Positions 9,730 to 55,805 of a DNA stretch of 64,000 nt are shown here, one piece after another (within the stretch, counting starts at the first letter, position 1; the number at the start of each line of letters is the position of its first letter). The DNA comes from Alphaproteobacteria bacterium (GTDB taxonomy: Bacteria; Pseudomonadota; Alphaproteobacteria; SP197): contig OZ245842.1 in assembly GCA_965228895.1 (NCBI GenBank), forward strand, positions 4,448,001-4,512,000, read 5' to 3'. The notes below the pieces were generated by a model that was given only the letters and a program-made list of their open reading frames with translations, ran no database searches and had not been told where the DNA came from. Made by a program: the position numbers and the translations under genes.

Positions 9730-9805
9730 GGCCACGTGGAGCAGTGCCGCGCCGCTCCGTGGCCGGCGGAGACAAGACCTGGCCGCGCTGACGCGGCGTC
9801 GGGAT

Positions 9806-10192: not shown

Positions 10193-10309
10193 GGCGCCCG
10201 TCTCCTCAAATCGGTTGGGCGGCCATGATGCGGCACCGGCCGCGTATCGACCGGCAGACCAGCGACATCAAGACGCCGGCAAACGACACCTTGTCTGCGA
10301 CCCCAGGCC

Positions 10310-37341: not shown

Positions 37342-37516
37342 CTCAGCGTCCTCTAGCAGCGGCAAGGAATGTGCCGCGTGGTTCGTTAAGCCCAGCTTTT
37401 GTGTCAAACTGTGTCATTCGTCGAATTCAGCAGCATGTCTCCGGCTCGGACGGTCATCAACTAAGAACTTCCACATGGATCATGTAGAAAAACTGAATAA
37501 ATACGAAGGTCGGCGG

Positions 37517-38431
37517 ATGCCGTCGCTGAACGCGCTGCGCGCGTTCGAGGCGGCCGCCCGCCATCTCAGCGTCGCCCGGGCTGCCGACGAGCTGCGCGTC
37601 ACGCCGCCGGCCATCAGCGGCCAGATCAGGAGCCTGGAAGCCTATCTGGGTATCCCGCTCTTCGTCCGCGCCAACCGGCGCCTGGCGTTGACCGAAGCCG
37701 GCCGCGCCGCCCTGCCCCGGCTGAGCGACGGTTTCGACGCCTTGGCCGAGGCCGTCCGCCTGGCGCGCGCCCATGGCCGCGATCGACCCGGCGAGGATCG
37801 CCAGCGCCTGACCGTCACCATCCCGCCATCGCTCGCCACCCGATGGCTGGTGCCGCGTCTGGAGTCGTTTGCCGGTGCGTATCCCGAGATCGATGTGCGG
37901 CTGGATGCCACCATGGCCCTGCTCGACCCCGACGATGTCGAGGTCGATGTTGCCATCCGCTACGGCCCGGGCGGCTACACGGGATTGGCGTGCGAACGCC
38001 TGTTGGAGGAATGGACGGTCGCGGTGTGCAGCCCATCGGTCGCAACCCGCCTTACGTCACCCGACGACCTCAACGATGTGACGCTGCTGCACGTACACGA
38101 CACCGTCCATGGACGGGACGGCGCACCGGACTGGCGGCGCGGGCTGGAGATCCTTGGCGTGAACGACCGCGACCCGGACCGTGGGCCGACATTCAGCCTG
38201 CAGGGCCTCGCCGCCCAGGCTGCCATCGAAGGACAGGGTATTGCCCTGTTGGGTCATGCGGTCGTCGATCTTGATTTGCGCGCCGGTCGCCTGGTGGAGC
38301 CGTTTGCCACGCGCTTTCCGGTCGACCACGCGATCTGGTTCCTGTGCCGGCCGGAACGGCGCGACCAAAGCCCGGTCGCCGAGTTCCGGCAATGGTTGTT
38401 CGACGCGGTCGCGCGGGATAATCCGGCCTAG
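37517..38431 (+). CDS. LysR-family regulator (GcvA-like)
   Basis: PSLNALRAFEAAARHLS..RAADEL.VT..AIS.QIRSLE..LG..LF.R; WLVPRL; DVAIRYG.G. Divergent from the Rieske cluster. Confidence 0.92.
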   Translation: MPSLNALRAFEAAARHLSVARAADELRVTPPAISGQIRSLEAYLGIPLFVRANRRLALTEAGRAALPRLSDGFDALAEAVRLARAHGRDRPGEDRQRLTVTIPPSLATRWLVPRLESFAGAYPEIDVRLDATMALLDPDDVEVDVAIRYGPGGYTGLACERLLEEWTVAVCSPSVATRLTSPDDLNDVTLLHVHDTVHGRDGAPDWRRGLEILGVNDRDPDRGPTFSLQGLAAQAAIEGQGIALLGHAVVDLDLRAGRLVEPFATRFPVDHAIWFLCRPERRDQSPVAEFRQWLFDAVARDNPA

Positions 38432-40518
38432 CCTGCCTTACGCGGCACAACGACCGCGTCGACCGCCATGGTTTTCTCCGGCCCAGCGATCAACGGATTG
38501 ACGTCGAGTTCGGCGATCAAGTCGCCATAGGCCATCGCCAGGCGCGACAGCGCGGTCAGGCTGTGGCTCAGCCAGTCCAGTTCTACCGGCGGCGCGCCGC
38601 GGACACCGGCCAGCAGGCGGCTCACCTTCAGCCGGGCGAGCGCGCGTTTGGCATCGGCCATGTCGAAGGGCGGCAGCAGGAAGACGCGGTCTTCCATCAC
38701 CTCGATCAGCACGCCGCCGGCGGCGACCATGACCAGCGGCCCGAACTGCGTGTCGTTCACAATGCCAGCAGCAAGCTCGACGCCCTGAGGCGCCATTTCG
38801 GCGATCAGCACGCGCTCGCCAAGCCGGCCCGCTAGGTCGTCATAGGTCCGGCCGACCGCCTCGTCGCCTTCGACGTTCAGCCGGATGCCGTCGACCTCGG
38901 TCTTGTGCAGGATGCCCGGCGCCGCCGTCTTCATCGCCAGCGCGCCGCCGATGTCTTGGGCAAAACGAAGGGCTTCGTCGCGGTTGTAGGCAATCCGGCG
39001 TTGGGGCGCGCCCATGCCGAACGTCGCGACCAACGCCAGCGCTTCGTCCTCGTCAAACGGCTCGCCGGTTTTCAGGCGCTTGCGCCAATGTTGGATGCGG
39101 TCCTTGCCAACCGTGTAGTGGTCGACCTGGGGTTCGGCTTGAAGCCTATCGCGGTAGTCCATCGCATGGCGCACGGCCTTCAAAAACGTGTGCGAACCGT
39201 CAAAGATCGGGATGCCGGCGTCAGCCGCGGCGTCGAGGATCGCTTTGGGCGGTGTCCGGCTCCAATGCTGGCAGATGCCGACCGGCTTTGTCGTGTTGTC
39301 GTGCACGCTTTTGCAGATATCGACCATTTCGCCGGTCAACGTGTCGGTCATGCCAAGGTCGGAGAACATCATGGCGATCGCCGTATCCGGGTCGTCGATC
39401 AGCGCCTGAAGACAACCGCCAAAGACCTTGTCCCAGTCCTTGCCCGTGCCCCAGCAGTCGGTCGGATTGACCGGATCCAGGCCGTACTCGAGCAAGCCTG
39501 CGAGCTTGTCGGTCGTTGTCTCGTTGACATCGGAAAACGGCACGCCTTCCCGGTCAGCGAGATCGATCAGCATGCCCCGCGCACCGCCGGAATCCATCGT
39601 GCCGGCCAAGCCGCCAGCCGCCAACGAACGGTCGAGGGAGAGCAGCTGGGCGGTCGCCGCCAACTCGTCGAAACTCTCGACCCGCAGGACTCCATAGTGA
39701 TCGAACACTGCTTCATAGGCGGCGTCGTTGCCGGCCATCGCGCCCGAGTGGCTCTGCGCCAGGATGGCGCTCTTTTCCGTCCGCCCGACCTTGAGCGTGA
39801 CGACGGGAATGCCGCGATCCCGCGCCTTGCCGAGCGCCGCGCAAAAGCCTTCGGGGTCTCTGACAGTCTCCAGAAACAGCATGATGACGCGGGTCGACTC
39901 AAGCTCGAGCGCGTAGTCGATGTAGTCGGCGGCCGTCACCGTCATTTCCTGGCCGGCCGAGACCACGAGGTTGTAGCGCTTGCGCGGGTCGACGAACTGG
40001 AGAGTCAGGAAGGCAACGCCGGAATGGGTGATGAACGTCGCCGAGCCGGGATCCGGCCACTCGTTCATCATCGTCCAGGTCGCGCGCATGCCCGATGTCC
40101 GGTTCACAACACCCATGCAGTTGGCGCCGCAGATCTTCAGGTCCGCCTCGCGTGCCATATCGGTCACCCGCTGCTTCAGCTTCGGTTCGCCCGTATCGCC
40201 TTCCAGGTAACAACTGGCGAAGATCGTCGCTGCTCCAACACCGGCCTTGATCGCCTCACCGATTTGCTCCTCAAGGCGATCGTTGGCGATCGAGATGACC
40301 GCGTGATCGACCGGTTCGGGAACCTCCGACAGGCGCGGGAAACAGGCGTGACCGTCGATCTCGTCGTGATTGGGATTGACCGCGTAGACGGTGCCGGTGA
40401 ACTCAGGATTGGCGGCGTTGCGCAGGGTCCAAAGACCGAACGAGTCTTCGCGCGTGGAAGCGCCGACGACCGCCATCGTCTTGGGTTCAAGCAGAGGAGA
40501 CAGGGGGTGTTTGCTCAT
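38428..40518 (-). CDS. Acetate--CoA ligase (ADP-forming) family, fused alpha/beta
   Basis: AVVGAS, GANCMG, LKVGRT...[39 protein letters not shown]. Confidence 0.9.
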
Positions 40519-40674
40519 GACGGCGGCGAGACTAGCACCGGAAACTCGGCCCGCCACCCCGATCTTCGCCCGCCGATGCCGTCATCACTTCCCGATGATC
40601 ATGCATGCGCGGTCTTTCGGCGTGAACACGGTCGGGCTAGACTGATTTCAGCGACACCGTGTGTGGAGCGCGCA

Positions 40675-42069
40675 TTGAGCTTTAAGTCCCAGATTCCTTC
40701 TGTCGATCGGCTGCTCGGTCTGCCTGACCTGCAAGCGCTGACAGCAAGTCACGGCCAGACGCTTGCGACCGACGCGGTACGCCGGGTGCTGGCCGACCTG
40801 CGGGCCCTACCCGATGACGCGACGCCTGATCTGGACGACGCGGCCTTGGTCGGTCGGATCATGGATGTGGCGCACCAACGCATGGCGCTCTCCTTGCGCC
40901 CGGTCTTCAACCTGACGGGGACTGTGCTGCATACCAATCTCGGCCGCGCATCCTTGCCAGAAAGCGCGATCGAGGCGATGGCGTCGGTTGCGCGCGGTGC
41001 CAGCAACCTGGAGTTCGACGTCGCCGCCGGCAAACGCGGCGACCGGGACGAACATATCGAGGAACGGTTGTGCCGTCTGACCGGCGCCGAGGCGGCGACG
41101 GTCGTGAACAACAATGCGGCGGCCGTCCTGCTTGCGCTCAACGCGTTGGCCGCGCGCAAGGAGGTGCCGGTCTCTCGCGGCGAACTGATCGAGATCGGCG
41201 GCGCCTTTCGCCTGCCCGACATCATGCGCCGCGCCGGTACACGCCTGGTCGAGGTCGGGACGACCAACCGGACCCACGCCCGCGACTATGAGGCGGCGAT
41301 CGGCGAACGCACCGCGCTCTTGATGAAGGTCCACACCAGCAACTACGCGGTCGAGGGTTTCACCGCGGCGGTCGCGGAGTCCGAACTCGCGGCCCTGGCC
41401 CATCAGCATGACTTGCCGCTAATGACCGATCTGGGCAGCGGTACCCTGGTCGACCTGACGGCCTATGGCTTGCCCGCCGAACCGACCGTCAGCGGCATGA
41501 TCCGGGCCGGCGCCGACCTCGTAACCTTTTCCGGCGACAAGCTGCTCGGCGGACCGCAGGCCGGCCTCATCGTTGGCCGGACCGACCTGATCGCGCGGCT
41601 GAAGAAGAACCCCATGAAGCGGGCGCTGCGTTGCGACAAGGTCACGTTGGCAGCGCTGGAAGCGGTCCTCGTCCTCTACGAAGACCCCGACAGTCTGCCT
41701 GATCGTCTACCGGCGCTGCGGTTGCTGACACGTCCGGAAACAGCGATCCGAGCACAGGCCGAGGCCTTGCTGCCGGCAATAGAAAAAACCCTCGACGCTC
41801 ACGCCGAGGTCGATGTCGTCGCGGTCAAGAGCCAGATCGGCAGCGGCGCGCTGCCGGTCGATCTGCTGCCCAGTGCCGCCCTGCGCCTGCGCAGCAACGC
41901 GCCAAAGAAACGCCAGGGCCGCGCTCTCAAGGAACTCGCTGCGGCCTTCCGCGACCTGCCGTGTCCGGTGATCGGTCGGGTCAGTGACAACGCTCTGATC
42001 TTCGACCTGCGCTGCCTGGACGACGCGGCCGCTTTCGCCGCGCAACTCGACCGGCTGGCCCTGCCGTGA
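40675..42069 (+). CDS. selA: L-seryl-tRNA(Sec) selenium transferase
   Basis: [76 protein letters not shown] start after GGAG. Confidence 0.96.
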
Positions 42070-44012
42070 TCGTCGCCACGGCCGGCCATGTGGACCATGG
42101 CAAGACGGCGCTGATCCGCGCGCTGACCGGCGTCGAAACCGACCGGCTGCCGGAAGAAAAGAAGCGCGGGCTGACCATCGATCTCGGCTTCGCCTATCTG
42201 CCGCTCGAGGACGGCTCGGTTCTGGGGTTTATCGACGTGCCCGGCCACGAAAAGTTTCTGCGCAACATGGTGGCCGGTGTCGCCGGCATCGACATCGCAC
42301 TCCTCGTCGTCGCCGCCGATGACGGTGTCATGCCGCAGACAATCGAACACCTCGCGGTCCTGGATCTGCTCGGCGTGCGGGAGGGTCTGGTCGCCTTGAC
42401 CAAGACCGACATCGTCGACAGCAGCCGGGTCGCCTCGGTCAAGAACGACATCGGCGCACTGTTGGCCGATACCAGCCTCGCCGACAGTCCCGTGTTTCCG
42501 GTTGCCGCACCGGCCGGAACCGGCATCGACGACCTGCGCGACCACCTGGAATCACTCGCCGGTGCTGTAAGCGAACGACGAGACACCGGCAACTTCCGAC
42601 TGGCCGTCGACCGCAGCTTCACCATTCCGGGCGCCGGCACGGTTGTGACCGGCACGGTGTTCTCCGGACACGCTTCGACCGGTGGCCGCCTCTATGTCGC
42701 GCCCGCCATGCGCGAGGTCAGGTTGCGCGGGATACACGCCCAGGATCGCCCATCGGACGATGCGCGCGCAGGCTGGCGCTGCGCGCTTAACCTCGTCGGC
42801 ATCGAACGCGACGAGGTCGCGCGCGGCGACTGGATCGTCGCGGCGGGCGCGCCGCCGCCATCGCGTCGTCTCGACATTCGTCTTCGCGTGCTCGGCAGCG
42901 AAGACAAACCGCTGAAGCATTGGGCACCCGTTCATGTCCACCACGGCGCGGCCCACATGCACGGCCATGTCGCGGTGATCGGCGCAGGATCGATCGCACC
43001 CGGCGAGACTGGCCTTGCGCAGCTCGTGCTCGACACGCCGGCCGTCGCGGCAAGCGGCGATGCGGTCGTGCTGCGCGATCAATCGGCGCAGCGCACCCTA
43101 GGCGGCGGCCGGGTCATCGACCCAGGCGGCCCTGCCCGCGGCCGCGCGCGGCCGTCGCGGGTTGCCGCGCTCGACGCCTTGGAAACCCGCGATAACGCGG
43201 CCGCTCTTGCCGCCATGCTCGCGTTGCCGGGCGCGGGCGTGGCGCTGGAGGGATTTCGCCGCAACCGCAATCTTACGGACGATGAGGCCCGCGCACTGTT
43301 CGCCGAAGCCGACCTCAAGATCACCGGACGCAGCGACGACACGATCGGCCTGTCGCCCGCCAGATGGACCGTCCTGCTCGACACGGTCGAACAAGCGGTC
43401 GGACGCTGGCACGGCGACCACCCCGACCGGCTTGGCCCGACGCCGGAGGAACTGCGCCGCGCCGCCGCGTGGGGCCAGGACCGCAACCTGTTGCAGGAGA
43501 TACTGGCTACGTTGGTCGGCGAAGGCCGGCTTCAGCGTCGTGGCATGGTGGTCCACAAACCCGATCACGATGTCCGGCTCAACGCCAAGGACGACGCACT
43601 GTGGCAGCAGGTCCGTGCCCACCTCTCACCCGACCACGGCAGCCCGCCGGCGCTATGGCAGCTCGCCGAAACCATCGGCAGCGAGCCGGAAACGCTTGAC
43701 CGGTTTCTCGGCCGCCTCGCCGGCATGGGTCTTGTCATGCGCGTTGCGCGCAACCGTTATCTCACACCCGAAGACGCCGCCCGCTACGGCCGCGTCGCCG
43801 AGAAACTCGCGACCACCGACGAGCCCGGCCTGACCGCCGCCAGCTTTCGCGATGCCGCCGGTGTCGGACGCAACTTCGCCATCGACCTCCTGGAGTTTCT
43901 TGACCGCGCCGGTCTAACCCTTAGACAGGGTGCGCGGCGCAGCCTGCGCCGTTCCGCCGCCGATGTCTTTGGCGCGGATAGTTCGGCCACCAAAGACCGT
44001 GCCCATGCTTAA
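42066..44012 (+). CDS. selB: Selenocysteine-specific elongation factor
   Basis: [36 protein letters not shown]-terminal winged helix ([21 protein letters not shown]). Confidence 0.96.
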
Positions 44013-45174
44013 GTCGTTCTCTGTCGAAGCGCTCGCCGCCGGCCTGCTCGCCTCGTTTGTCGGGTTCGCCAGTTCGTTCGCCGTCATCATCCAAGGGCTG
44101 ACCGCGGTCGGCGCGACCCAGGCCGAAGCCGCGTCCGGCCTCATCGCGCTCTCGATCTCCATGGGCCTGTGCGCGATCTGGCTCAGCCTCAGATCCAAGC
44201 TGCCGATATCGGTTGCCTGGTCGACCCCTGGCGCCGCGCTCTTGGCAACCACAGGTGCGATCGAAGGCGGTTTCTCTGCGGCGGTCGGCGCCTTCATCGT
44301 CACCGGCGTGCTGCTGGTGGTTGCGGGTTTGTGGAAACCGCTCGGCCGCTGGGTCGCCGCGATCCCCGCGCCGCTGGCCAATGCCATGCTGGCGGGCGTG
44401 ATCCTAGGATTGTGCCTGGCGCCGGTCAAAGCGGTCGCCGAACTGCCGGCGCTTGCCTTGCCGATTGTCATCGTCTGGGCCGTGGTCGCGCGGTTCAGCA
44501 GGATCTACGCCGTGCCGGTCGCCGTCGTCGTGACAGCGGTGATCATCGGCGTCACCACAGACGTGTCGAGCATGAAAATGGGATCGCTGTGGCCGGAGCC
44601 GGTCCTGGTCATGCCGACCTTCCCGCCCGCCGCGATGATCGGCATAGCCTTGCCGCTCTTCATCGTCACCATGGCATCGCAAAACATTCCGGGCATGGCG
44701 GTCTTGAACGCCAACGGTTATCGGCCCAACCCCAGCCCGCTCTTCGCCACCACCGGCTTGTTCAGCCTGTTCTCCGCGCCATTCGGCGGCCATGCGGTGA
44801 ACCTGGCAGCAATCACCGCGTCACTGTGCGCCAGCGACAACGCCCATCCCGATCCGGCGCGCCGCTACTGGGCCGCCGTCGTCGCAGGCGTCGGCTATGT
44901 CCTGTTCGGTCTGATGGCGGGTGCAGCGACGGCGTTCATCGCGGTTTCGCCGCCCATCCTGATCCAGGCGGTCGCCGGCCTTGCTCTGCTGGGCGCGCTC
45001 GGCACCTCCATGGTCCAGGCGCTGAGCGAGGCCAGGGATCGCGAAGCCGCCATCGTCACCTTTCTGGTAACCGCGTCGGGCTTGGCGTTTCTCGGCATCA
45101 GCGGCGCGTTCTGGGGGTTGATCGCCGGCGGCGCGGTGATGGCGCTGACACGTTGGCGGCGCGGCAAGGCATGA
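44005..45174 (+). CDS. BenE-family (benzoate/H+ symporter-like) transporter
   Basis: PISVAWSTPGAALL, LANAMLAG, LPLFIVTMASQNIPG, NLAAITA, FLVTASG, AFWGL. ATG overlaps the selB stop. Confidence 0.92.
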   Translation: MLKSFSVEALAAGLLASFVGFASSFAVIIQGLTAVGATQAEAASGLIALSISMGLCAIWLSLRSKLPISVAWSTPGAALLATTGAIEGGFSAAVGAFIVTGVLLVVAGLWKPLGRWVAAIPAPLANAMLAGVILGLCLAPVKAVAELPALALPIVIVWAVVARFSRIYAVPVAVVVTAVIIGVTTDVSSMKMGSLWPEPVLVMPTFPPAAMIGIALPLFIVTMASQNIPGMAVLNANGYRPNPSPLFATTGLFSLFSAPFGGHAVNLAAITASLCASDNAHPDPARRYWAAVVAGVGYVLFGLMAGAATAFIAVSPPILIQAVAGLALLGALGTSMVQALSEARDREAAIVTFLVTASGLAFLGISGAFWGLIAGGAVMALTRWRRGKA

Positions 45175-45191
45175 ACCATGGTCAACGACAT

Positions 45192-45286
45192 GGAAAGGGG
45201 TCGCATCCGGTGATGCGCCCGGTCTTCAAAACCGGTGAGACGCGTTCAACGGGTCTGGTGGGTTCGACTCCCACCCCTTTCCGCCA
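45192..45286 (+). tRNA. selC: tRNA-Sec (UCA)
   Basis: 8 bp acceptor stem GGAAAGGG/CCCTTTCC plus GCCA; D-arm CGCATC-CGGT-GATGCG; anticodon arm CCGGT-CT-TCA-AA-ACCGG (TCA at 45226-45228); long variable arm; GTGGG-TTCGACT-CCCAC. 95 nt. Confidence 0.97.
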
Positions 45287-45304: not shown

Positions 45305-47500
45305 ATGACGCCAGCCGAACCGGTGACCTCAGACATCGTGCTGGTCGGCGGCGGTCACGCCCATGTCGAGGTCATCCGCCGCTTCGCCATGGAGCCTGAG
45401 CCCGGCGTGCGTCTGACGATCGTCGCGCGCGACACCTTCACGCCCTATTCCGGCATGCTGCCGGGCTATCTTGCCGGTCACTATGACCACACCGCCTGCC
45501 ATATCGACCTGAGGCCTCTGGCACGCCTGGCCCGCGCCCGCTTGATCCACGCGCCGGCGACCGGCCTTGATCCGATCGCGCAAACCGTCGCCATCGAGGG
45601 CCGTCCGCCGATCCCCTATGACCTCGCGTCGATCGATATCGGCTCAGTGCCGACCAAACTGGGCATCGACGGCGCCGATGACCACGCCATCCCGGTCAAG
45701 CCGGTCGACCAATTCCTGACCCGATGGCAGAACGTCGAAGCGCGTTTGACCGAAACCAGCGGCCCATTTCGCCTGACGATCGTGGGCGGCGGTGCGGGCG
45801 GTGTCGAGGTGGCGCTTTCCCTACGCCACCGGCTGCGCCGTTACCTCGCCGAGAACGCTGGTGACCCCGACCGTCTCGCCGTCACCGTCATCACCGACCG
45901 CGACACCGTCCTGCATCAGCATGCCATGCCGGTTCGCCGCGCGATGATCCGCGCACTCGACCAGCGGGACGTGACGATCGTGACGGGCCACAAGGTGGTG
46001 GCGTTTCACGCCGACCGCGTTGCCTGCGATCCCCAGATGGAGATTACCAGCGACGCCGCCGTCCTGGTGACCCATGCGGCCGCCCATCCCTGGCTGGCAT
46101 CGACCGGACTTGATCTGGACGACAGCGGCTTCATCAAGGTCGGGCCAACGCTGCAGTCGGTGTCGCACGCCGGGGTGTTCGCCGCCGGCGATGTCGCGGC
46201 GTTCACCACCCAGCCGCTCGCCAAAAGTGGGGTCTATGCCGTGCGCAAGGGGCCGATCCTGGCCGACAACCTGCGACGCTTGGCGCGCGGGTTACGGCCG
46301 CAGCCCTATCGTCCGCAGGGCCGCACCCTCGCGCTGATCTCGACCGGCGACCAGAATGCGGTGGCGTCCTGGGGACCCCTTGCGGTCGAAGGCGCCTGGG
46401 TCTGGCGTTGGAAAGACCGCATCGACCGGCGCTGGATGGCGGTCTACCAGGATATCGAGCCCATGCCCGAGGATCCCGCGGATCCCATGCGGTGCGGCGG
46501 CTGTGGCGCCAAGGCGCCGGCGGTCGTCCTGGATCGCGCGCTCGAGCGCCTCGACATCAAAGCCAACGCATCACTGGTCGCCGGCCTCGATGCACCGGAC
46601 GATGCCGCCGTCTTCACGCCGCCCGCCGGTCAGGTTGCCGTGCAGACCGTCGACCAATTTCGCGCGCTCGTCGACGATCCCCATCTGTTCGGACGGCTCA
46701 TGGCGGTCCACGGTCTGGGCGATCTTCATGCCATGGGCGCAACACCCGCCGTTGCCTTAGCGCTGGTCGGCCTGCCGTTTGCCGACCCGGATCGCATGGA
46801 GTCGGATCTCGTGCAGGTGCTCTCGGGCGCGCTTCAGGTTCTGAACGACGAAGACTGCGTGCTGGCCGGCGGCCACACCAGCGAGGCCCAAGAGTTCACC
46901 TTCGGCTTGGCGTTGACCGGCTTTGCCCGTCAGGACGAGCTACTTGTGAAGGGAGGCTTGCGTTCGGGTGACGACCTGATCCTGACCAAGCCCTTGGGCA
47001 CCGGCGTGTTGTTCGCCGCCGACATGCGCGGCGCGGCCAAGAGTGCCTGGATCGAGGCGGCACTGGCCTCGATGCTGCAATCGAGTGCGATGGCCGCCAC
47101 CTGCCTGAAAACCCACGGCGCAACCGCGGCGACCGATGTCACCGGCTTCGGCCTGGCCGGACATCTCGGCGAAATGGTGCGGGCGTCGTCAGTCGATGCC
47201 GAGTTGTGGTTGGAGTCACTTCCAATATTGGCGGGCGCGCGCGACCTGTTCGCGCGCGGTATTGCCAGCACGCTGCAGCCGGCCAACTTCGAAAGCTCAG
47301 CAACCGCGCTAAGCGACGGCACCGACCCCATCCTGTTCGATCCGCAGACCGCCGGCGGCCTGCTGGCTGGCATCCCACACGACAGAACCGCCGCATGCCT
47401 GAAAGACCTCAACGACGCGGGCTATCAATCAGCCCGCGTCGTAGGGCGTGTCACGGAGTCAGGCTCTGGTCAGATCGCGATTAGAGCGGATCTCCTCTAG
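45305..47500 (+). CDS. selD: Selenide, water dikinase fused to an N-terminal FAD-dependent (NADH dehydrogenase-like) oxidoreductase
   Basis: N-terminal LVGGGHAH, YSGMLPG, GGGAGGVE, FAAGD. C-terminal MRCGGCGAK, DDAAV, QTVD, AGGHT, ILTKPLGTG, TDVTGFGLAGH, DPQTAGGLL. Confidence 0.94.
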   Translation: MTPAEPVTSDIVLVGGGHAHVEVIRRFAMEPEPGVRLTIVARDTFTPYSGMLPGYLAGHYDHTACHIDLRPLARLARARLIHAPATGLDPIAQTVAIEGRPPIPYDLASIDIGSVPTKLGIDGADDHAIPVKPVDQFLTRWQNVEARLTETSGPFRLTIVGGGAGGVEVALSLRHRLRRYLAENAGDPDRLAVTVITDRDTVLHQHAMPVRRAMIRALDQRDVTIVTGHKVVAFHADRVACDPQMEITSDAAVLVTHAAAHPWLASTGLDLDDSGFIKVGPTLQSVSHAGVFAAGDVAAFTTQPLAKSGVYAVRKGPILADNLRRLARGLRPQPYRPQGRTLALISTGDQNAVASWGPLAVEGAWVWRWKDRIDRRWMAVYQDIEPMPEDPADPMRCGGCGAKAPAVVLDRALERLDIKANASLVAGLDAPDDAAVFTPPAGQVAVQTVDQFRALVDDPHLFGRLMAVHGLGDLHAMGATPAVALALVGLPFADPDRMESDLVQVLSGALQVLNDEDCVLAGGHTSEAQEFTFGLALTGFARQDELLVKGGLRSGDDLILTKPLGTGVLFAADMRGAAKSAWIEAALASMLQSSAMAATCLKTHGATAATDVTGFGLAGHLGEMVRASSVDAELWLESLPILAGARDLFARGIASTLQPANFESSATALSDGTDPILFDPQTAGGLLAGIPHDRTAACLKDLNDAGYQSARVVGRVTESGSGQIAIRADLL

Positions 47501-48705
47501 GCGCGATAGCCGTCCGGCACCATCATGAAGTCGCCGACGTCGTAAAGCGCGGGATCGGTCTCTTGTAGCAAGTCTTTGCGCAGCGACTGCAGCAATTCGG
47601 CCAACGACGTCTCGTGCCACAGCCAGTCGGTGAGCTCCTTCTGATCGACCATGCCCGGCCGCGCGGTCGCCGCTTCCAGATAAAAGGCCTTCAGGTCCTC
47701 GGCCGACAAACGCAAGGCATCGGCGCTGCCGACCGTCTCGATCGGACTTTCGCGGGTGTCACCGGCGAGCCAACCGTCCAAAAAACGGGCGGCATCGGTC
47801 ATCTCTAGGCCGCTCAAGCCAACCGACGTGCGGCCGCGCCGGTCGCGGCCGACGTCATACCACGGCTGCAACTGACCGATCTCGGCCAGCACGGCTTCGC
47901 GCAGACCGGTCCGGTCTTCCGGTGCCGGCGGTTTGGGGAAACTCACCGGGCAAACCCAGCTCTCCATGCCCTCATCCGCCACTTCTTCCGGTGCGTCTTC
48001 GGGGAAGTCGACCAGCACCGGACCCTCCGGCGCGTCGAACAGGTCGAGCGCGGCCTTCAGAACCTTCGTCTGAAAGGCCGGATTGTTCGGCACGCCGAAC
48101 GGGCGCCCCAGAGGGAACGGCACCCAAAGCGCACGCGGCGGCATGAGCTTTTCGTTGTGCTCACGCACCAGCGCGATGATCACCGTCGCCAGGCCTTCGT
48201 CTTCCAAATACTTCGCTAGTCCGCCAACGGCGCACGTACAAAGCGGTCAGACGGGGGCGAGGACGACCGTGTTGACGCCGTCGGCCTTCAGGATACCGGC
48301 GAGCTCGCGAACCGCCGGCTCCATCAAGGTCGGGTCGGTCGCGCCCATGAACGAATAGTGGAAGTCGGCAACCGAACCGATCGTTCCTTCATCGGCCAGT
48401 TCGTTCAGCCGGTGCAACGGAAACGCGATGTTGACGTCCTGATGGAAACCCGTGCGGTCGTGGGTGGTCGAAACATGATCCATGACCACATCGTCGACCC
48501 TGTCCGCCGGGATCACGCGATAGTCCGCCGCGTCGGCGGCGAACGGCTGGTCACTCTTCAGCTTGAGGCCCGCCGAAGAGATCAATGCCACCCGCCGCTC
48601 CTTGGCCGGAGCCGGCTCGGTCCAGGGCTCGATCTCTATCTCGGGCACCGCCCAGTCTTCCAGGAACTCTCTTGCATCGGCGTCGAGGTCCGCCAGTCTC
48701 ACCAT
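47497..48705 (-). CDS. GrdB/PrdB-like selenoprotein (Sec at TGA 48249-48247), about 402 aa with a C-terminal extension
   Basis: ORFs 48705-48247 and 48207-47497 are in the same frame, with the open bridge VVLAPV-U-PLCTCAVGGLAKYLEDEGLATV. N-half RVALISSAG...DVNIAFPL.RL.EL...G.IG; C-half PPRALWVPFPLGRPFG. Sec genes are adjacent. Confidence 0.88.
48211..48243 (-). promoter_or_regulatory. Putative bacterial SECIS element
   Basis: Sequence 3' of the UGA folds by hand as CUUUG/CGAAG, UA/UA, GU/AC, CGCC/GGCG with an apical GUU loop whose G is at +19. Confidence 0.7.
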
Positions 48706-48759
48706 GTCTTCTCTCCTTCCCCGATCCGGTTGTGAGCCTCGCGGACAAGCAGAAGCCTG

Positions 48760-50214
48760 TCAACTCACGGCTTCACGGGTCGGCAACATCATCGGCGCCA
48801 TCTCGTCGGCCGTGCGGCCCGCCCAATCGAGTTCCGACACGCGTTCCAGCATGCGCGCCTGGGCGCGCTGCAGGCGTTCGGACTCCTCCGCAAGATCGAT
48901 GGTTGTCAGCTTGCCGTCTTGTACCACCGCCTCGCCGTCCACATAGACATCGCGGACCGCGCGTTCGGCGGCGACCACCAACAGGCTGCGCAGCGGTTCA
49001 CGCACCGGCATCATCGCGGGGTGTTCGAGGTCAACGACAACAAAGTCGGCCCGGGCGCCCGGCGCCAGCCGGCCGATATCGTCGCGGCGCAGCGCCTTGG
49101 CGCCGCCTGATGTCGCGGCGTTGAAGACATCGAGATAGTCGAGGTCCGCGACACTTTCACCGATGACACGCGCGGCGACCGCCGCGGTGCGCATTTCCTC
49201 CAGCATGTTGTGCGGGTAGGTGTCGGTGCCGATCCCCATGTTGACGCCGCGCCGGACGTATTCGCCGAACGTGCGCAGCGTGATGCCGCGCCGCGAAAAC
49301 ACGGTCGGACAATGGGCGACGGCCGCGCCGCGCTCGGCCATCAGGTCGAGATCGCGGTGCGACGACCAGTGCAGCCAGGGATGGTGATCCAGAAAGATGC
49401 AGTGGGCGATGATGCTGCGTTCGTCCAGCACGCCCAAGTCGGCCATCCACTGGATCGGCGTCTTGCCGTGACGGCGCTGCATCTCCAGAAACTCGGTCAC
49501 CGACTGCGCCGCATGAATGGTCCACGGCAGGTTGCGTTCGGCGGCGTAGGCGTGGCTGTCGCGTAGCAAACCTTCGCCACACGTATCGACTTGGGACGGC
49601 GAGAGCATGCCATCGAGACGGCCGGAAGGGTGCTGGCGCGCCAGTTCGATCACCCGGCAGGCGGCATCGAACCGTTCGCGCCCGGCCTTTTCGTCCCAAT
49701 CGTATTGCAGCTTGTAGCCGTCGGATGTGTACCAGCGGGCATCGCGAAAGAACGGCGCAGCCACCGCGCGGATGCCGCTATCGGCGAGCGCGTCGAGCCA
49801 GCCATCGAAGGCCGCCGACAGATCGACCACGGTGGTGACGCCCGATAGCAGCAGTTCCGCCAACGCGACCTTCAGGCATGCCATGCGCCCCTCGTCATCG
49901 GCGGGGTCGAAAACCGGCAGATGTTCATAGAGCGAGCTGTGCCAAAACCCCGGTGAGTGGGTTTCATCGGTGATGCCCTTGCGCATGGTCTCGCTGGTCG
50001 GATGGCTGTGGACGTTGATCAGGCCCGGCATCACCAAACGCCCGGAACCGTCGATCTCCATCCCGGCCGGACCGTCATAGCCTTTGCCGACAAACGTGAC
50101 GGCACCGCCGGAGAAAGCGAGGTCGGCGTTACGCAGATAGACATGGCGTGCCTCGGCCGCATCCCAGGCGACCAGCCAGTCAATGCCACGGATAACGGTC
50201 GTCTCGCTCATCAC
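48760..50214 (-). CDS. Amidohydrolase (chlorohydrolase/deaminase-like)
   Basis: PGLINVHSH, ELLLSGVTT, IHAAQS, AHC, AHCP, GIGTDT, GRLAPGARAD. Confidence 0.9.
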   Translation of the reverse strand: MMSETTVIRGIDWLVAWDAAEARHVYLRNADLAFSGGAVTFVGKGYDGPAGMEIDGSGRLVMPGLINVHSHPTSETMRKGITDETHSPGFWHSSLYEHLPVFDPADDEGRMACLKVALAELLLSGVTTVVDLSAAFDGWLDALADSGIRAVAAPFFRDARWYTSDGYKLQYDWDEKAGRERFDAACRVIELARQHPSGRLDGMLSPSQVDTCGEGLLRDSHAYAAERNLPWTIHAAQSVTEFLEMQRRHGKTPIQWMADLGVLDERSIIAHCIFLDHHPWLHWSSHRDLDLMAERGAAVAHCPTVFSRRGITLRTFGEYVRRGVNMGIGTDTYPHNMLEEMRTAAVAARVIGESVADLDYLDVFNAATSGGAKALRRDDIGRLAPGARADFVVVDLEHPAMMPVREPLRSLLVVAAERAVRDVYVDGEAVVQDGKLTTIDLAEESERLQRAQARMLERVSELDWAGRTADEMAPMMLPTREAVS

Positions 50215-50318: not shown

Positions 50319-51275
50319 TTGACCGCAACCGATCTCTACCCGCCATACGAGCCGTGGGACAGTTTCGCGCTTCCGGTCAGCGATCTTCACACGCTTCATG
50401 TCGAGCAAGGCGGCAAGGCGGACGGGGTCCCGGTTGTCTTTCTGCATGGCGGGCCGGGCGATATCTGGTCGCCGGCGATCTACCGCTTCTTTGATCCCGA
50501 CCACTATCGCGTCATCGCGTTCGATCAGCGCGGCGTCAATCGGTCGACGCCGGCCGGCGAACTCCGTGACAACACGACGCCCCATCTGATCGCCGATATC
50601 GAGGCGATCCGGCAGCATCTGGGCATTGAACGGTGGATTGTCTTCGGCGGATCCTGGGGCAGCGCCCTGGCCCTGGCCTATGCCCTGGAACATCGTGACA
50701 GCGTTCTGGCGCTTGTCGTGCGCGGTATCTATCTGGGCGATCCCGACGACGACATCTGGGGTTTCAGCCATTGTCGGAACATCCTGCCGGAGGCCTGGGA
50801 TGAACTCGCAAGCCACTTTCCGGCCGGCGACCACGACAATCTCTTCGCCGCCTGCGCGCGCGATATCGATGATGACGACGACGCACGTGCGATGGAAGTC
50901 GCCAAAGCGTTCGACGTTTTCTCCGGCTTGCTCTGCGGCAACACGACAAAGCGCGACGACATTCCCCTACACAAGTCAACCGACGCGGAGACCCTGGTCA
51001 CGTCGCGTCTGTCGCTCGCCTATTTCGCCAACGATATCTACCTGCCGCCCATGCACTTGCCGAACAACGTGCACAAGCTCGCCGGCATACCCGGCGCGAT
51101 CGTGCAGGGCCGCCGCGACCTCATCTGTCCGGCGCGCAATGCCTGGCTCTTGCACAAGGCCTGGCCGGAGGCGACGCTGACGATCAGCGACGAGGCCGGT
51201 CACGCGCCGTTCGAGGACGGAAACCGCGAGGCCCTTGTGACTGCGATGGAAACCTTGAAGGATCTGAAGCTGTGA
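50319..51275 (+). CDS. pip: Proline iminopeptidase (S33 family)
   Basis: FLHGGPG, FDQRG..RSTP, DNTTPHLIADIE, FGGSWGS, LRG-like VRGIYL, VQGR.DLICP, AGH. Confidence 0.82.
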   Translation: MTATDLYPPYEPWDSFALPVSDLHTLHVEQGGKADGVPVVFLHGGPGDIWSPAIYRFFDPDHYRVIAFDQRGVNRSTPAGELRDNTTPHLIADIEAIRQHLGIERWIVFGGSWGSALALAYALEHRDSVLALVVRGIYLGDPDDDIWGFSHCRNILPEAWDELASHFPAGDHDNLFAACARDIDDDDDARAMEVAKAFDVFSGLLCGNTTKRDDIPLHKSTDAETLVTSRLSLAYFANDIYLPPMHLPNNVHKLAGIPGAIVQGRRDLICPARNAWLLHKAWPEATLTISDEAGHAPFEDGNREALVTAMETLKDLKL

Positions 51276-52357
51276 ACCCGTCGCGTTTGATCGAACCGGA
51301 TGAACTGGAGCCGCTTGCCACCGGCGCCTGGATTCTGGGCGCGGGCGGCGGTGGTTCACCCTATGACGGTTACCTCAATCTCAGGCGGCTCTACCGGAAC
51401 GGCGCTCAGGTGGAACTCCTGGACCCCATGGCGCTCGACGATGACGATCTGGTCGCTGTCGTGTCGACCATGGGCGCGCCGCTGGTTGGCCAGGAACGCC
51501 TTGCCGATCCCGCCCTGTCGGTCAAACCGGTCGTCGCCATGCAGGACTATCTGGGGCGAACTTTCCGTGCGGTCATGCCGGTTGAAATCGGCGGCGGCAA
51601 CGGGCTGGAGCCGATGCTTGTCGCGTCCCAGCTCGATATCCCGGTGGTCGACGCCGACGCCATGGGCCGCGCGTTCCCGGAAGCCCAGATGACCAGCTTC
51701 GCCATTCATGGCCTTAAGATGTACCCAATGGCGCTGGGCGATATCCGGGGCAACGCCGTGATCGTCCAGAAAGCCGAAAACCCGAAATGGGTCGAACGCA
51801 CCAGCCGCGCCGTCTGCACCGCGCTGGGCAGCACCGCGCCAACCGCCAAGGCGCCGCGCACCGGCCGCGAGGTGAAGGACTGCGGCATCCTCTATTCGGT
51901 GACCCGCGCCATCAACCTGGGCCGCACGGTCCACGACGCGCGCGAGCGACATGTCGATCCCGTCACTGCCGTTCTGGACGGCGAAGGTGGCGCGTTGATG
52001 TTCACCGGCAAGATCCAGGACGTCGATCGGCGGACGACAGCCGGTTTCCTGCGTGGGTCGGCGCGCCTTGAAGGGCTCGACGGCGATCACGGCGCGACGT
52101 TCGAGGTCGACTTCCAGAACGAATACCTGATCGGCCGGCGCGACGGTCAGCCGACCGTCATGGTGCCGGACATCATCTGTCTGATGGATAGCGAGACCGG
52201 CGAAGCGGTGGGAACGGAGACCCTGCGTTACGGCCAGCGTATCGCCGTCATCGCGCTGCCGGCGCCACCGGTCCTCTCAACGCCGGACGGCCTGGCGCTG
52301 GTCGGCCCGCGCGCCTTCAACTACGACATCGACTACCGCCCGGCATTCAACGCCTGA
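51272..52357 (+). CDS. DUF917-family protein
   Basis: GAWILGAGGGG, MGAP, EIGGGNG, VDADAMGRAFPE.QM, QNEYL, VPDII, TETLRYGQR. Confidence 0.88.
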   Translation: MNPSRLIEPDELEPLATGAWILGAGGGGSPYDGYLNLRRLYRNGAQVELLDPMALDDDDLVAVVSTMGAPLVGQERLADPALSVKPVVAMQDYLGRTFRAVMPVEIGGGNGLEPMLVASQLDIPVVDADAMGRAFPEAQMTSFAIHGLKMYPMALGDIRGNAVIVQKAENPKWVERTSRAVCTALGSTAPTAKAPRTGREVKDCGILYSVTRAINLGRTVHDARERHVDPVTAVLDGEGGALMFTGKIQDVDRRTTAGFLRGSARLEGLDGDHGATFEVDFQNEYLIGRRDGQPTVMVPDIICLMDSETGEAVGTETLRYGQRIAVIALPAPPVLSTPDGLALVGPRAFNYDIDYRPAFNA

Positions 52358-52542
52358 CAAGCCATCTCGGCCGCGCGCTGTGGTGCGGCCTCACGAACGC
52401 CGAGCAAGCCTTTGACGGGAGTCCGTTCGATCGATGCATCGACCGATCACCAAAACGTATGGAATTTCTTGATCACCGTATTTTTTTCGGTATTTATGAA
52501 ATCTAGAGACTCGGAAGTTTCTGTTTGGAGGCGGCGGCAAAG

Positions 52543-53157
52543 TTGAGCAAACGGACGGCAAGCGTGCCAAAACAAACGCCTGTCGAACGCGACGGCATCG
52601 ATGACCCAGCGGCGCTCTATGCCATCGGCGGCATGATCCGCCAGCGCCGGAGGGAACTGGGACAGACCCTTGAGCACGTCGCCTCGTCAGCCGGCATCGG
52701 CATCGGTTTCCTTAGCGACATCGAACGCAACAAGGCATCGCCATCCGTGGCGACACTCTTCAAGATCTGCGACGTCTTGGGTATCTCCATCGGTTCGCTC
52801 TTCAAGAGTGAGCAGTCCTTTCTCGTGCGCGCCGGTGAACGCGAGACCATGCGTTATGGCGGGCAGGACATTCTTTTCGAGTTGCTGAACGCGCGCCAGT
52901 CGCGATCGATCGCGGCGGTGCTCGGCCAGTTGGAGCCGAACGGCATGTCAGGCGAGGATCTGCATGTCTTGGATAGCGAGGAGGAGTTTGTCTTCGTCAT
53001 CGAAGGCGAGTTGGTGTGGGAGTTCGAGGACGAGACCCTGCACCTGAAAGAAGGCGATGCCCTGACGGTCAACCCGAACCGGCGGCATCGTTACTACAAC
53101 CCGTCTCCGGATAAGATTTGCCGCGCCCTCTGCATCATCTCACCACCGCCGAGGTGA
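52543..53157 (+). CDS. XRE-family HTH plus cupin transcriptional regulator
   Basis: IRQRRRELGQTL...FLSDIERNKASPSVATL; EEFVFVIEG...L..GD...H.Y.N. Start uncertain. Confidence 0.9.
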   Translation: MSKRTASVPKQTPVERDGIDDPAALYAIGGMIRQRRRELGQTLEHVASSAGIGIGFLSDIERNKASPSVATLFKICDVLGISIGSLFKSEQSFLVRAGERETMRYGGQDILFELLNARQSRSIAAVLGQLEPNGMSGEDLHVLDSEEEFVFVIEGELVWEFEDETLHLKEGDALTVNPNRRHRYYNPSPDKICRALCIISPPPR

Positions 53158-53163
53158 ACGTAA

Positions 53164-54639
53164 ATGCCTCACCCGCAGAACCGTCTGCCCCAGGTTTCCC
53201 GCGAGCCCGTCACGGTCTTGTGGAATGGCAAACACGTGCCCGGCCTCAAGGGCGACACCCTTGCCGCAACGCTCTATGGCCATGGCATTCGCGCGGTGGC
53301 GAGGTCGCGGAAGTTCCATCAGCCGCGAGGGTTGTCGGGAAGTTTTGTCGCCGGTCACCTGGCAACGGTGGACGGCGTTCCACACTGCCGCCTTGACCGT
53401 ACCGCCACAGCGGAGGGCCAACGGGTCGATCTCGAGAACGTCTGGCCGTCCGCCCGGTTCGACCTCATGTCCCTGGCACGATTTCTCCCGCGAAAGATGG
53501 TGCGCGCGGGTTTCGAACATCCGCGCTGCATACCCGACGGCTCGTTCGCATGGAAGATCTGGGAGCGAACGCTATGGCAGATGGCAGGTGAAGCGGATGC
53601 ACCGGCTCCTTCGAGCGCCAGCGAGACTTTGGCCAGGCATCTGAAGGCCGACACCCTGGTGATCGGCGGCGGACCAGCGGGCATAAAGGCCGCGACATCC
53701 GCATCTGGCAGCGTGGTTCTGGTGACCCGGTCCAGGGAACTCGGCGGGATGGCGTTTGGCGCCGACAACACGTACCCGCCTCTACCGGAAACCGTGACCG
53801 TCCTGACCAACCACGAAGTCTACGCTTTGTTCGACGAGGCCCGAATCGCCATGGCCGCGCCCAACAACCCGCGGGAACCGTGCGTTCTCATCGAAGCCGA
53901 CAAGGTTATCCTCGCGACCGGCACCTGCTCGACGCCGCCGCTGGTGGCTGGTGCGGCTCTGCCCGGCGTTCTCGATGCGCGGACGGCATTACATCTTGCG
54001 GCGCGCTACGGCGTGCCTCCCGGCAAGCGCACCGTGGTCATCGGCACGGCGCGCGGCGGAGCCGTCGCGGAGCGGCTGGTCGCACTGGGATGCGACATCA
54101 TCGACGTCATCGATGTTGCAGATGTCGACCGCATCGACGGACGCGACTGCGTTTCGGCGGTCCGCGCCGGCGGACGAAGCATAGCCTGCGACGCGGTCGT
54201 TCACGCCAGCCCATGGCGCGCCGATCCCACCTTGCCGTTTCAGGCATGCGCCGATGGCGAGCTTCGGTTGGCCGCCGGCAACCTGCCCGGCCATGTCTCC
54301 CAAGTCGGCGCCTGTAGCGAACCGGATGAGGCCGTCTCGTTTGGCCGCGCCCTAAGTCGAGACGCCCTTGTCTGCCCGTGCATGGACGTGACTGTCGACG
54401 AAATCCTGGACCTGATCGATCGCGGTATCGGTCATGTGGAGGAGCTGAAACGGCGCTCGACCTGCGGAATGGGTACCTGCCAGGGGGTGCCATGCTGGAG
54501 TTATCTGGGCGCCGTCCTTGCCGATGCGACCGGGCGGTCCCTCGACGACATCGGCCATCCGACCTATCGGCCGCCCCGCGCGGCATTGACCGTGGGACAG
54601 GCGGCCGGGTTGGCGGAAATCACGGAGGTCGAACCATGA
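53164..54639 (+). CDS. Sarcosine oxidase alpha / opine oxidase-like subunit (short form)
   Basis: GDTLAATL...RSRKFHQPRG, IGGGPAG, ILATG, C-terminal CPCMDV...ELKRR.TCGMGTCQG..C and RPP. Confidence 0.8.
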   Translation: MPHPQNRLPQVSREPVTVLWNGKHVPGLKGDTLAATLYGHGIRAVARSRKFHQPRGLSGSFVAGHLATVDGVPHCRLDRTATAEGQRVDLENVWPSARFDLMSLARFLPRKMVRAGFEHPRCIPDGSFAWKIWERTLWQMAGEADAPAPSSASETLARHLKADTLVIGGGPAGIKAATSASGSVVLVTRSRELGGMAFGADNTYPPLPETVTVLTNHEVYALFDEARIAMAAPNNPREPCVLIEADKVILATGTCSTPPLVAGAALPGVLDARTALHLAARYGVPPGKRTVVIGTARGGAVAERLVALGCDIIDVIDVADVDRIDGRDCVSAVRAGGRSIACDAVVHASPWRADPTLPFQACADGELRLAAGNLPGHVSQVGACSEPDEAVSFGRALSRDALVCPCMDVTVDEILDLIDRGIGHVEELKRRSTCGMGTCQGVPCWSYLGAVLADATGRSLDDIGHPTYRPPRAALTVGQAAGLAEITEVEP

Positions 54640-55805
54640 GCCTGCCGAACCGCAGTGAGATCGTTGTCGTCGGCGCCGGCATTCAAGGACTTTTGCTTGC
54701 CTTCAATCTCGCGGATCGTGGCAAGACGGATGTCCTCGTTCTGGACGCGGGCTACTGGCAGGGCGGTTCATCGGGACGAAATGGCACGCTCGTGCGCGGC
54801 GGTTTTTCGTCGCCCGAATGGACAGGGCTGTTCCAGCACTCGGTCGAACAGTGGAAGGGCCTTTCCTCGCGCCTGCGCCGCAACGTCATGTTTACCCGCC
54901 GGGGATACACCATCATCGCGGAATCCGATAAGACGCGCACGATGCTGGATGGCGCCTTCGACACGCAGAAGGCGCTGGGTGTCAAATCGGAGATGCTGAC
55001 GGAACGACGCCTGAGAGATCTTCTGCCGGCGATCCAACACGGCCGCATCAAAGGCGCCATTCATCTCGCTGAGGGCGGGACCGCGCCGCATCATGCCGTC
55101 ATGAAGGCGGCGTTGGACGCGGCGCGGGAAAAGAGTGTCCAAATTCATTATCAAACGGCGGTGACGGGTATCGAGACGACGGCGGGCAGGGTATCCGCCG
55201 TGTTGGTCGGCGATCAGCGGATCGAGTCCGACCTGACCGTCATCGCCGCCGGCGGCTTCTCCACCGACCTCGCCCGGATGGCGGGCGTGGACCTCGACGC
55301 CATGCCTTTCCGTATCGAGGCGGCCGCGACCGAACCGCTGCGGCCCTTGATCTATCCGGCGATCGCCCTGATCGATCGCTTGACCTATCTCCATCAAACC
55401 GCGCGCGGTGAAATCGTCGGCGGCAGCGAATTGCCGGGTGAGCGTGGCAAGCGCAATCTCAAATCCACCGCCTATGTCTTGCCGCGTTACGCCAAGCATC
55501 TCCTGGAGATGTTCCCGCAACTACGCGACATTCGTATCCTGCGGCAGTGGTCCGGCCTTCTCCATCCGGCACCCGACGGCGGACCGCTGCTGGGAGTCCA
55601 TCCTGATATCCGTGACCTCTGGTTCTCGGCAGGATGGACATACGGAATCGCGGGCGCGCCAGGCGCGGCGGACCTGTTGTCGAAGGCCATGCTGACGGGC
55701 AAGGTCGACAGCCGGATGGCTGCCTTCTCGGTCGATCGTTTTCGGCGCGGAAAGCCTTGCCTGGAAGCGTCCGCCGTCATCGACAACGCCAGCGTGGCGG
55801 CGTGA
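54636..55805 (+). CDS. FAD-dependent oxidoreductase, sarcosine oxidase beta / D-amino acid oxidase-like
   Basis: VVGAGIQG, GSSGRNG, TEPL, YLHQT.RG, ILRQWSG, PDGGPLLG. ATGA overlap with the upstream gene. Confidence 0.85.
   Translation: MSLPNRSEIVVVGAGIQGLLLAFNLADRGKTDVLVLDAGYWQGGSSGRNGTLVRGGFSSPEWTGLFQHSVEQWKGLSSRLRRNVMFTRRGYTIIAESDKTRTMLDGAFDTQKALGVKSEMLTERRLRDLLPAIQHGRIKGAIHLAEGGTAPHHAVMKAALDAAREKSVQIHYQTAVTGIETTAGRVSAVLVGDQRIESDLTVIAAGGFSTDLARMAGVDLDAMPFRIEAAATEPLRPLIYPAIALIDRLTYLHQTARGEIVGGSELPGERGKRNLKSTAYVLPRYAKHLLEMFPQLRDIRILRQWSGLLHPAPDGGPLLGVHPDIRDLWFSAGWTYGIAGAPGAADLLSKAMLTGKVDSRMAAFSVDRFRRGKPCLEASAVIDNASVAA

Follow-up and report, generated by a model that had tools for sequence, protein, structure and literature searches.

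What does a selenoprotein with the catalytic centre of a clostridial amino acid reductase do in an alphaproteobacterium that can respire oxygen and in which the partner subunits of such reductases are not found? The question is raised by a gene in a 64,000-nt stretch of DNA (the window) from an Alphaproteobacteria bacterium of GTDB lineage SP197 (assembly GCA_965228895.1, contig OZ245842.1, forward-strand positions 4,448,001 to 4,512,000). The gene lies on the minus strand at 47497..48705, has 402 codons including codon 153 for selenocysteine (Sec), and ends with a TAG stop at 47499-47497. Its product resembles PrdB and GrdB, the selenoprotein subunits of D-proline and glycine reductase, and we refer to it as PrdB-like. 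A preliminary description, made from the sequence alone, had proposed a hidden and stand-alone member of this superfamily, perhaps a one-component enzyme with a different chemistry. The reading that we favour, with some though not great confidence, is a 402-residue selenoprotein that joins a PrdB/GrdB core to a helical domain of its own, acts without PrdA, GrdE or GrdA, and would use Sec153 and Cys156 in a reductive cycle.

Among the minus-strand open reading frames (ORFs) of the window the gene appears as two entries, 48247..48705 (152 aa) and 47497..48207 (236 aa), which belong to a single frame with the TGA at 48249-48247 as its sole break. Translation of 48705..47497 with TGA read as Sec (U) gives 402 residues with one recoded codon, U153, in the context VVLAPV-U-PLCTC-AVGGLAKYLEDEG, so the two entries are one gene split only by a TGA, as had been suggested. 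A Shine-Dalgarno-like sequence, GGAAGGAGAG (48711..48720, minus strand), can be read directly 5 nt from the ATG at 48705, with its AGGAG core 7 nt from the ATG. At the other end, the stop of the PrdB-like gene overlaps that of the convergent oxidoreductase-SelD ORF (45305..47500) in a plus-strand CTAG at 47497-47500, the tail-to-tail arrangement that was described beforehand. GC content at third codon positions (GC3) is 0.93 in the 40 codons before the UGA and 0.70 in the 40 codons after it. This drop agrees with the earlier remark on atypical AT-ending codons past the UGA, but the codons of the hairpin itself end in G or C.

The selenocysteine assignment can be judged across relatives. A scan with one genome per prokaryote species gave at least 605 pattern matches, at least 558 of them encoding a relative; locus counts given below out of 80 refer to the best 80 of these relatives. 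At all 80 loci TGA occupies the U153 position of the alignment, the frame is open over nearly its full length, and the motif reads U-P-x-C-T. The hosts include Alpha-, Gamma- and Betaproteobacteria, Dehalococcoidia/Chloroflexota, Desulfobacterota, Geobacter and one bin labelled Nitrosopumilus. A search at the level of the host's order (33 genomes) gave 50 matches, 48 of them with an internal TGA. Homologues of full length (369-470 residues) span both halves, and seven of the eight aligned have Cys in the U153 column; one database homologue has Trp in this column, evidently a TGA translated as Trp. Position 153 (U or C) and C156 are invariant in an alignment of 38 sequences. Thus the two features to be looked for in homologues, a Sec/Cys column and fused halves, are both present. 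Most protein-database matches are C-terminal pieces of 230-250 residues that start just past the Sec, often under the name 'hypothetical protein', because gene callers cut genes at a UGA. The extra Cys of U-x-x-C-x-C, which the preliminary description had treated as a defining feature, turned out to be a trait of some lineages, present at 12 of the 80 loci and replaced by Arg at most others. Tandem duplicates with an in-frame TGA in both copies occur at loci L010, L013 and L014 (about 8001-10430) and L079 (331-2108).

Downstream of the UGA lies a hairpin resembling a selenocysteine insertion sequence (SECIS), at 48210..48244 on the minus strand (alignment columns 6-40), whose upper stem pairs 48235-48229 with 48225-48219 around a loop at 48228-48226. 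A 63-nt segment that begins immediately ahead of the UGA folds at -22 kcal/mol (z = -2.1), and 5 of 200 shuffles fold equally well. The loop opens with a G at the 19th base past the UGA (alignment column 22, window 48228), as the preliminary description had it. An alignment of 81 sequences over the 60 nt from the UGA needs no gaps, and the first two loop bases, G22 and T23, are invariant in it. Upper-stem pairs are kept in 61-81 of the 81 sequences, position 17-29 excepted, while the lower stem is much less regular. Over the tested structure, which was taken from the window's own fold and is favoured by that choice, pairing occurs in 71% of cells; sliding the 3' partners by 1-3 columns lowers this to 32-50%, and none of 500 shuffles matches the observed pairing or covariation score. 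The hairpin is thus conserved across homologues with some compensatory change, as in pair 16-30, which is C-G in 64 and U-A in 14 of the 81 sequences. Here an Arg-to-Cys (or Ser) change at codon +5 accompanies a silent G-to-A change in the opposite Gly codon (window 48234 and 48220), so that the change to Cys gives the extra Cys of U-x-x-C-x-C along with the U-A pair. Where the amino acid is shared, 96-98% of sequences have the same codon at each of +4 (ACG), +5 (CGC), +6 (GCC) and +8 (GGC), whereas in flanking four-fold-degenerate codons the commonest codon is used in 37-63%; these frozen synonymous sites, a finding independent of any structure, indicate selection on the RNA. No Rfam family matches the hairpin. 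That the locus encodes a genuine selenoprotein is, on such comparative evidence, a sound conclusion.

Placement in the superfamily follows from profile searches. The protein matches Pfam GRDB (PF07355) with 33.6 bits against a gathering score of 22, residues 12-150 aligning to profile positions 200-345 of 347, and the gene is the only PF07355 match in its genome. The proposal of a hidden selenoprotein of the GrdB/PrdB superfamily is supported. The best curated match is PrdB TIGR04483 (6.7e-30; residues 32-222 on profile positions 25-217 of 238), whose score of 104.3 bits is below the cut-off of 300. The cut-offs of TIGR01917, TIGR01918, NF040794 and NF040795 are all missed by far (34.1/602, 40.1/65.45, 44.6/800 and 47.4/775, respectively); among these are the GrdB model, at 34 against 602 bits, and a subfamily model, at 40 against 65 bits. 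The active-site motif U-x-x-C is present as U153-P-L-C156 (Sec codon at 48247..48249, minus strand).

An AF2 model was built on 38 sequences (mean predicted local distance difference test score, pLDDT, 91.9). Together with the TIGR04483 match, its secondary structure delimits a PrdB-like alpha/beta core at about residues 33-222 (48040..48609, minus strand). Sec153 is placed between a strand (146-150) and a helix (154-169), with Cys156 in the first turn of this helix. A linker modelled at lower confidence (about 241-260) and bearing a conserved Cys-Pro (C252) leads to six helices from residue 265 on, and these make up a C-terminal domain of residues ~245-402 (47500..47973, minus strand). The C-terminal extension, put at about 150 residues in the preliminary description, is borne out, as the match to the PrdB profile stops at residue 222 of 402 and leaves about 180 extra residues. 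This domain has invariant C, E, W, R, D, P, W and T in 24 sequences, and when folded alone has a pLDDT of 91.9. Searches against Pfam with the C-terminal 167 and 236 residues gave no match up to E 10, and comparison of the domain with the PDB identified no relative (best Z 5.3, Foldseek E 0.96), which does not imply a novel fold. A PDB sequence search with the whole protein found no relative either (best match E 0.46, spurious). Foldseek/VIA-align with the whole model gave only generic Rossmann-like, periplasmic-binding-protein-like and SDR-like matches to residues 32-243 (Z 7-9, max 8.9).

How does this protein compare with known systems? With PrdB of Clostridium sticklandii and Clostridioides difficile (TIGR04483), its best match, it shares the U-x-x-C Sec and the alpha/beta core. 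It differs in scoring a third of the cut-off, in having 402 residues against 238 profile positions, with the helical C-terminal domain, and in its setting: a host capable of respiring oxygen, no PrdA proprotein in the genome, and nothing of the prd operon in the context. With GrdB, GrdF and GrdH it shares the Pfam GRDB match and the U-x-x-C centre, but the GRDB match is confined to the final third of the profile, no GrdA or GrdE homologue was found, and the extra sequence, N-terminal in GrdB, is C-terminal and unrelated in the window protein. The U-x-x-C-x-C of the subclade here resembles the UxxCxxC quoted for GrdB in a passage of PMC13188914. Fluoroacetate reductase systems of the FarB/FarE type in Synergistota, as presented in parts of PMC10838667 and PMC12366334, are cases of GrdB-like selenoproteins recruited to other reductive cleavages; these systems keep the multi-subunit glycine-reductase architecture, whereas the window genome is without a FarE/GrdE-type subunit. 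Literature searches on PrdB-like and GrdB-like proteins turned up only fluoroacetate reduction in Synergistota, and one on thiohydantoin desulfurase gave no match.

The absence of partners was examined in a genome that is a single 5.53-Mb contig, 98.7% complete. Neither PF09338 (the GrdE/PrdA proprotein) nor, in a search that had no positive control, PF04723 (GrdA) has a match in it. Across the order, the PrdB-like gene is present in 30 of the 33 genomes and PF09338 in none of the 33; PF09338 is likewise absent from all 14 standard control genomes. The PF09338 search is able to see its family, because it matched one of five other family-carrying genomes (G037) with 281 bits, 1.35 Mb from the PrdB-like gene of that genome. 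The match in G037, of the Desulfobacterales, is an orphan GrdG-like ORF of 278 residues (L103 10317-11153) with no GrdB-like gene alongside. With this GrdG-like protein as query, tblastn gave no match in either 101 loci (best E 0.087) or the window genome (best E 1.6). Three haem-copper oxidase subunit I genes in the genome and a Rieske oxygenase in the window indicate that the host is capable of aerobic respiration. The two assertions made beforehand, that Grd/Prd partners are missing and that the host looks aerobic, thus agree with these searches, and a 'stand-alone' PrdB-like selenoprotein is supported by genome content. The family as a whole is widespread, mostly Sec-containing, and built on the PrdB/GrdB core.

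The window contains all of selA, selB, selC and selD, each on the plus strand. The selA gene (40687..42069, start approximate) was recognised by Pfam SelA (7.3e-161, residues 667-1038 of a 1054-aa ORF) and Se-cys_synth_N (residues 595-633), selB (42066..44012) by TIGR00475 (451 bits, cut-off 242), and the tRNA-Sec gene selC (45192..45286) by ARAGORN (anticodon TCA) and Rfam RF01852 (82.4 bits). The selD function is encoded in a 731-aa pyridine-nucleotide-disulfide oxidoreductase-SelD fusion (45305..47500; TIGR03169 460 against 310, selD TIGR00476 277 against 125), which recurs beside the PrdB-like gene in relatives and, among 10 orthologue loci of the order, is convergent with it in 7. The selA ORF extends upstream to 38905 (38905-42069, plus strand), some 590 codons past the SelA domains; the upstream part is probably a GC-rich shadow ORF, since it overlaps an ADP-forming acyl-CoA synthetase gene (38428-40557, minus strand). 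Between selB and tRNA-Sec is a BenE-family benzoate transporter gene (43930-45174, plus strand), common to 1 of the 80 loci, whose true start is probably later because the longest ORF overlaps the selB end by about 80 nt. The PrdB-like gene is not the sole selenoprotein gene of the genome, given a SelW-like match (Pfam Rdx, PF10262) with one in-frame TGA outside the window (G000:C1:1134364-1134564, minus strand). Nine molybdopterin-oxidoreductase and ten CMD/AhpD-like matches of the same genome have no internal stop. A scan of the genome for in-frame-TGA genes by codon-position GC was rejected: its strict filter (48 candidates) missed the PrdB-like gene itself, and its loose filter gave 2023 candidates, 684 with a redox-like motif, that were mostly false positives.

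Directly upstream of the PrdB-like gene, on the same strand and across a gap of 54 nt, is a gene for an amidohydrolase of the chlorohydrolase/deaminase family (48760..50214, minus strand; Amidohydro_1 3.6e-43; PRK06151 375 bits, below the cut-off of 416), which is its likely operon partner. It is found at the same place in 8 of the 80 loci and at least 6 of the 10 orthologue loci of the order. Within 8-kb flanks the 80 loci yielded amidohydrolase 8 times, DUF917 7 times, a SelD homologue 13 times, selB 10 times, selA 7 times and prolyl aminopeptidase once; the loci with amidohydrolase or DUF917 all belong to close relatives within the Alphaproteobacteria. The DUF917 / S-Me-THD-like gene is divergent from the amidohydrolase gene. 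In the window it belongs to a plus-strand group (50319-55805) along with a prolyl aminopeptidase gene, a helix-turn-helix (HTH)-cupin regulator gene and a Fer2_4 + Pyr_redox_2/BFD + DAO set, which we take to resemble opine or imino-acid dehydrogenases. A second amidohydrolase paralogue (33788-35293, minus strand) lies near a Rieske ring-hydroxylating oxygenase gene (36226-37407) and a gene of the NAD-dependent epimerase/dehydratase family (35298-36437).

Other contexts are found elsewhere in the family, at GC-rich loci where ORF calls are crude and where annotation covered cluster representatives. Another lineage has a coenzyme A (CoA)-transferase III gene upstream and a D-2-hydroxyacid dehydrogenase gene downstream on the same strand, at 9 loci each, and a Bmp-type ABC transporter. 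Two or three paralogues, each with the TGA, are present in 15 of the 33 genomes of the order (G007-G028; loci L083-L092). Paralogue 2 lies between a GMC oxidoreductase gene and genes for SBP_bac_8 ABC / TAXI-TRAP transporters, while paralogue 3 adjoins EamA, SDR and aldo-keto reductase genes. The varied settings of the paralogues point to a diversity of substrates.

A mechanism can be proposed for the favoured enzyme. SelB, tRNA-Sec and the downstream hairpin would recode the UGA at 48249-48247 as selenocysteine. The catalytic cycle that we envision is drawn by analogy to PrdB/GrdB chemistry, as set out in part of PMC13188914. The Sec153 selenolate, at the N-terminal end of its helix, would act as nucleophile on an electrophilic centre of a small substrate, in the way that PrdB and GrdB act on the alpha-carbon; Cys156, one helical turn off, would then resolve the adduct to a selenenyl-sulfide, freeing the reduced product; and the Se-S bond would be re-reduced by a dithiol donor (e.g. 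thioredoxin) or by the conserved Cys252 on the flexible linker. In this lineage the substrate may be the product of the co-oriented amidohydrolase, a link that we draw because of the 54-nt spacing, the shared strand and the conservation in close relatives only. D-proline bound to PrdA is an unlikely substrate. The one-component enzyme with a different chemistry put forward in the preliminary description is plausible.

Could the TGA instead be a genuine stop, separating two small genes or marking a decaying pseudogene? Public gene calls do show the halves only, mostly as the C-terminal 'hypothetical protein' pieces of 230-250 residues. However, all 80 loci, in many phyla, have this TGA with an open frame before and after it, and the Cys homologues are fused across both halves. 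There is RNA-level constraint downstream of the codon, the downstream piece begins only at a TTG, 14 codons past the TGA, and complete Sec machinery lies alongside, so we give a genuine stop almost no credence. It is also difficult to envision that the protein is the B subunit of an actual D-proline (or glycine/betaine) reductase, with a PrdA/GrdE partner that escapes recognition through divergence or remoteness. PF09338 is unmatched in the genome and in the 33 genomes of the order, though the same search matched elsewhere. PrdB TIGR04483 may be the best curated match (6.7e-30), but at 104 against 300 bits it is far from its cut-off, as are GrdB (34 against 602) and the subfamily model (40 against 65), and 180 additional C-terminal residues follow. 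The prolyl aminopeptidase and imino-acid-oxidase-like gene set within 7 kb would suit a proline reductase, but prolyl aminopeptidase is found at only 1 of the 80 related loci. We therefore hold such a subunit to be very improbable.

Two other explanations accept the selenoprotein and give it a different role. It might be a redox or selenium-handling protein of the Sec pathway, for example carrying or reducing selenium species for the oxidoreductase-SelD. A U-x-x-C motif at the N-terminus of a helix is of a general redox kind. A SelD homologue is found within 8 kb at 13 of the 80 loci, selB at 10 and selA at 7, and oxidoreductase-SelD is convergent at 7 of the 10 orthologue loci of the order. 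However, selenoprotein genes often adjoin Sec machinery without any functional tie beyond decoding, and 67 of the 80 loci have no selD nearby. The existence of Cys-form homologues may also speak against this role, as do the 2-3 paralogues of 15 of the 33 genomes, whose unrelated metabolic contexts fit substrate diversification better; we judge it improbable. Unlikely as well, though a little easier to accept, is a subunit of a two-component enzyme, in which a neighbour, here the amidohydrolase, binds or activates the substrate and the selenoprotein does the reductive step. Canonical PrdB and GrdB always need a second, substrate-binding subunit, according to the part of PMC13188914 that treats them. 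The amidohydrolase gene, 54 nt away on the same strand and in place at 8 of the 80 loci and at least 6 of the 10 orthologue loci, could supply one here, and the PrdB-like gene has a strong ribosome-binding site; at 9 loci of another lineage a CoA-transferase III is encoded directly upstream on the same strand. Yet the upstream gene varies by lineage, the amidohydrolase link is limited to close relatives, and many loci are without a common co-oriented neighbour; as weak evidence, no fused forms scored among the longer proteins.

Some findings weigh against our preferred reading of a selenoprotein that works without PrdA, GrdE or GrdA. The PF04723 (GrdA) search matched no control genome either, and so has no positive control. 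Neighbourhoods vary by lineage, with no conserved partner or substrate across the family, and the amidohydrolase link, confined to one order, could be inherited synteny. The structure yields no functional clue, since the core gave generic matches only and the C-terminal domain none, and we found no biochemical data for any family member. A further step would be to regard the long PrdB-like proteins as self-sufficient Sec reductases of oxygen-respiring heterotrophs, in which the helical C-terminal domain, not described before, replaces the pyruvoyl subunit in substrate binding and the paralogues are specialised by substrate. This is a tentative proposal, which we think could be true but would not presume. 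Under it, the substrates of the paralogues may include amidohydrolase products, CoA-activated 2-hydroxy acids, and osmolyte-like amines near GMC oxidoreductases.

The family has been counted before, under another description. In passages of Zhang, Fomenko & Gladyshev 2005, proline reductase (PrdB) with UXXC, at 42 genes, ranks third in abundance among the selenoprotein families of the Sargasso Sea (PMC1088965), and the Global Ocean Sampling (GOS) analysis of Zhang & Gladyshev 2008 reports, in its part on PrdB (pfam07355, UxxC), 235 selenoproteins from 38 samples, along with 110 homologues that have Cys (PMC2398784). The genome survey of Zhang et al. 2006 counts proline reductase, in the section concerned, as a selenoprotein of both Anaeromyxobacter dehalogenans and Geobacter uraniumreducens (PMC1794560), and the relevant passages of reviews of 2022 and 2026 give only D-proline reductase, TIGR04483. 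The high novelty claimed for the gene is therefore not supported, as UxxC / pfam07355 'PrdB' was counted in the surveys of 2005, 2006 and 2008. Our relatives and the 'PrdB' of the surveys have the same motif, the same Pfam label and the same kinds of hosts (marine and other non-clostridial bacteria, Geobacter, Anaeromyxobacter), and Sec forms outnumber Cys forms in both. From the motif, label, hosts and Sec/Cys ratio, rather than from sequences, we infer that the window protein very probably belongs to the surveys' 'PrdB' family. In the passages concerned, the surveys accept D-proline reductase as the function without question, and no survey or review passage on PrdB remarks on the absence of PrdA or on a C-terminal domain. 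What we describe is no novel system but a long variant of a catalogued family whose survey name probably denotes the wrong reaction.

The interest of the gene rests on its open function and not on its existence. Stickland fermentation is not expected in the ocean. If the self-sufficient reading of the family is true, it would explain the abundance of 'PrdB' among ocean selenoproteins, and the survey label would name the wrong reaction. Public gene calls that cut the gene at the UGA would be corrected for the whole family, at least 558 loci in species-representative genomes. The order is a reasonable place to find the function, because the gene is present in 30 of its 33 genomes, often in 2-3 copies, and stands beside the Sec machinery. 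Since the family is probably the leading marine 'PrdB' yet lacks the defining partner of that enzyme, it would represent a common use of selenium in aerobic environmental bacteria for which there is no known reaction.

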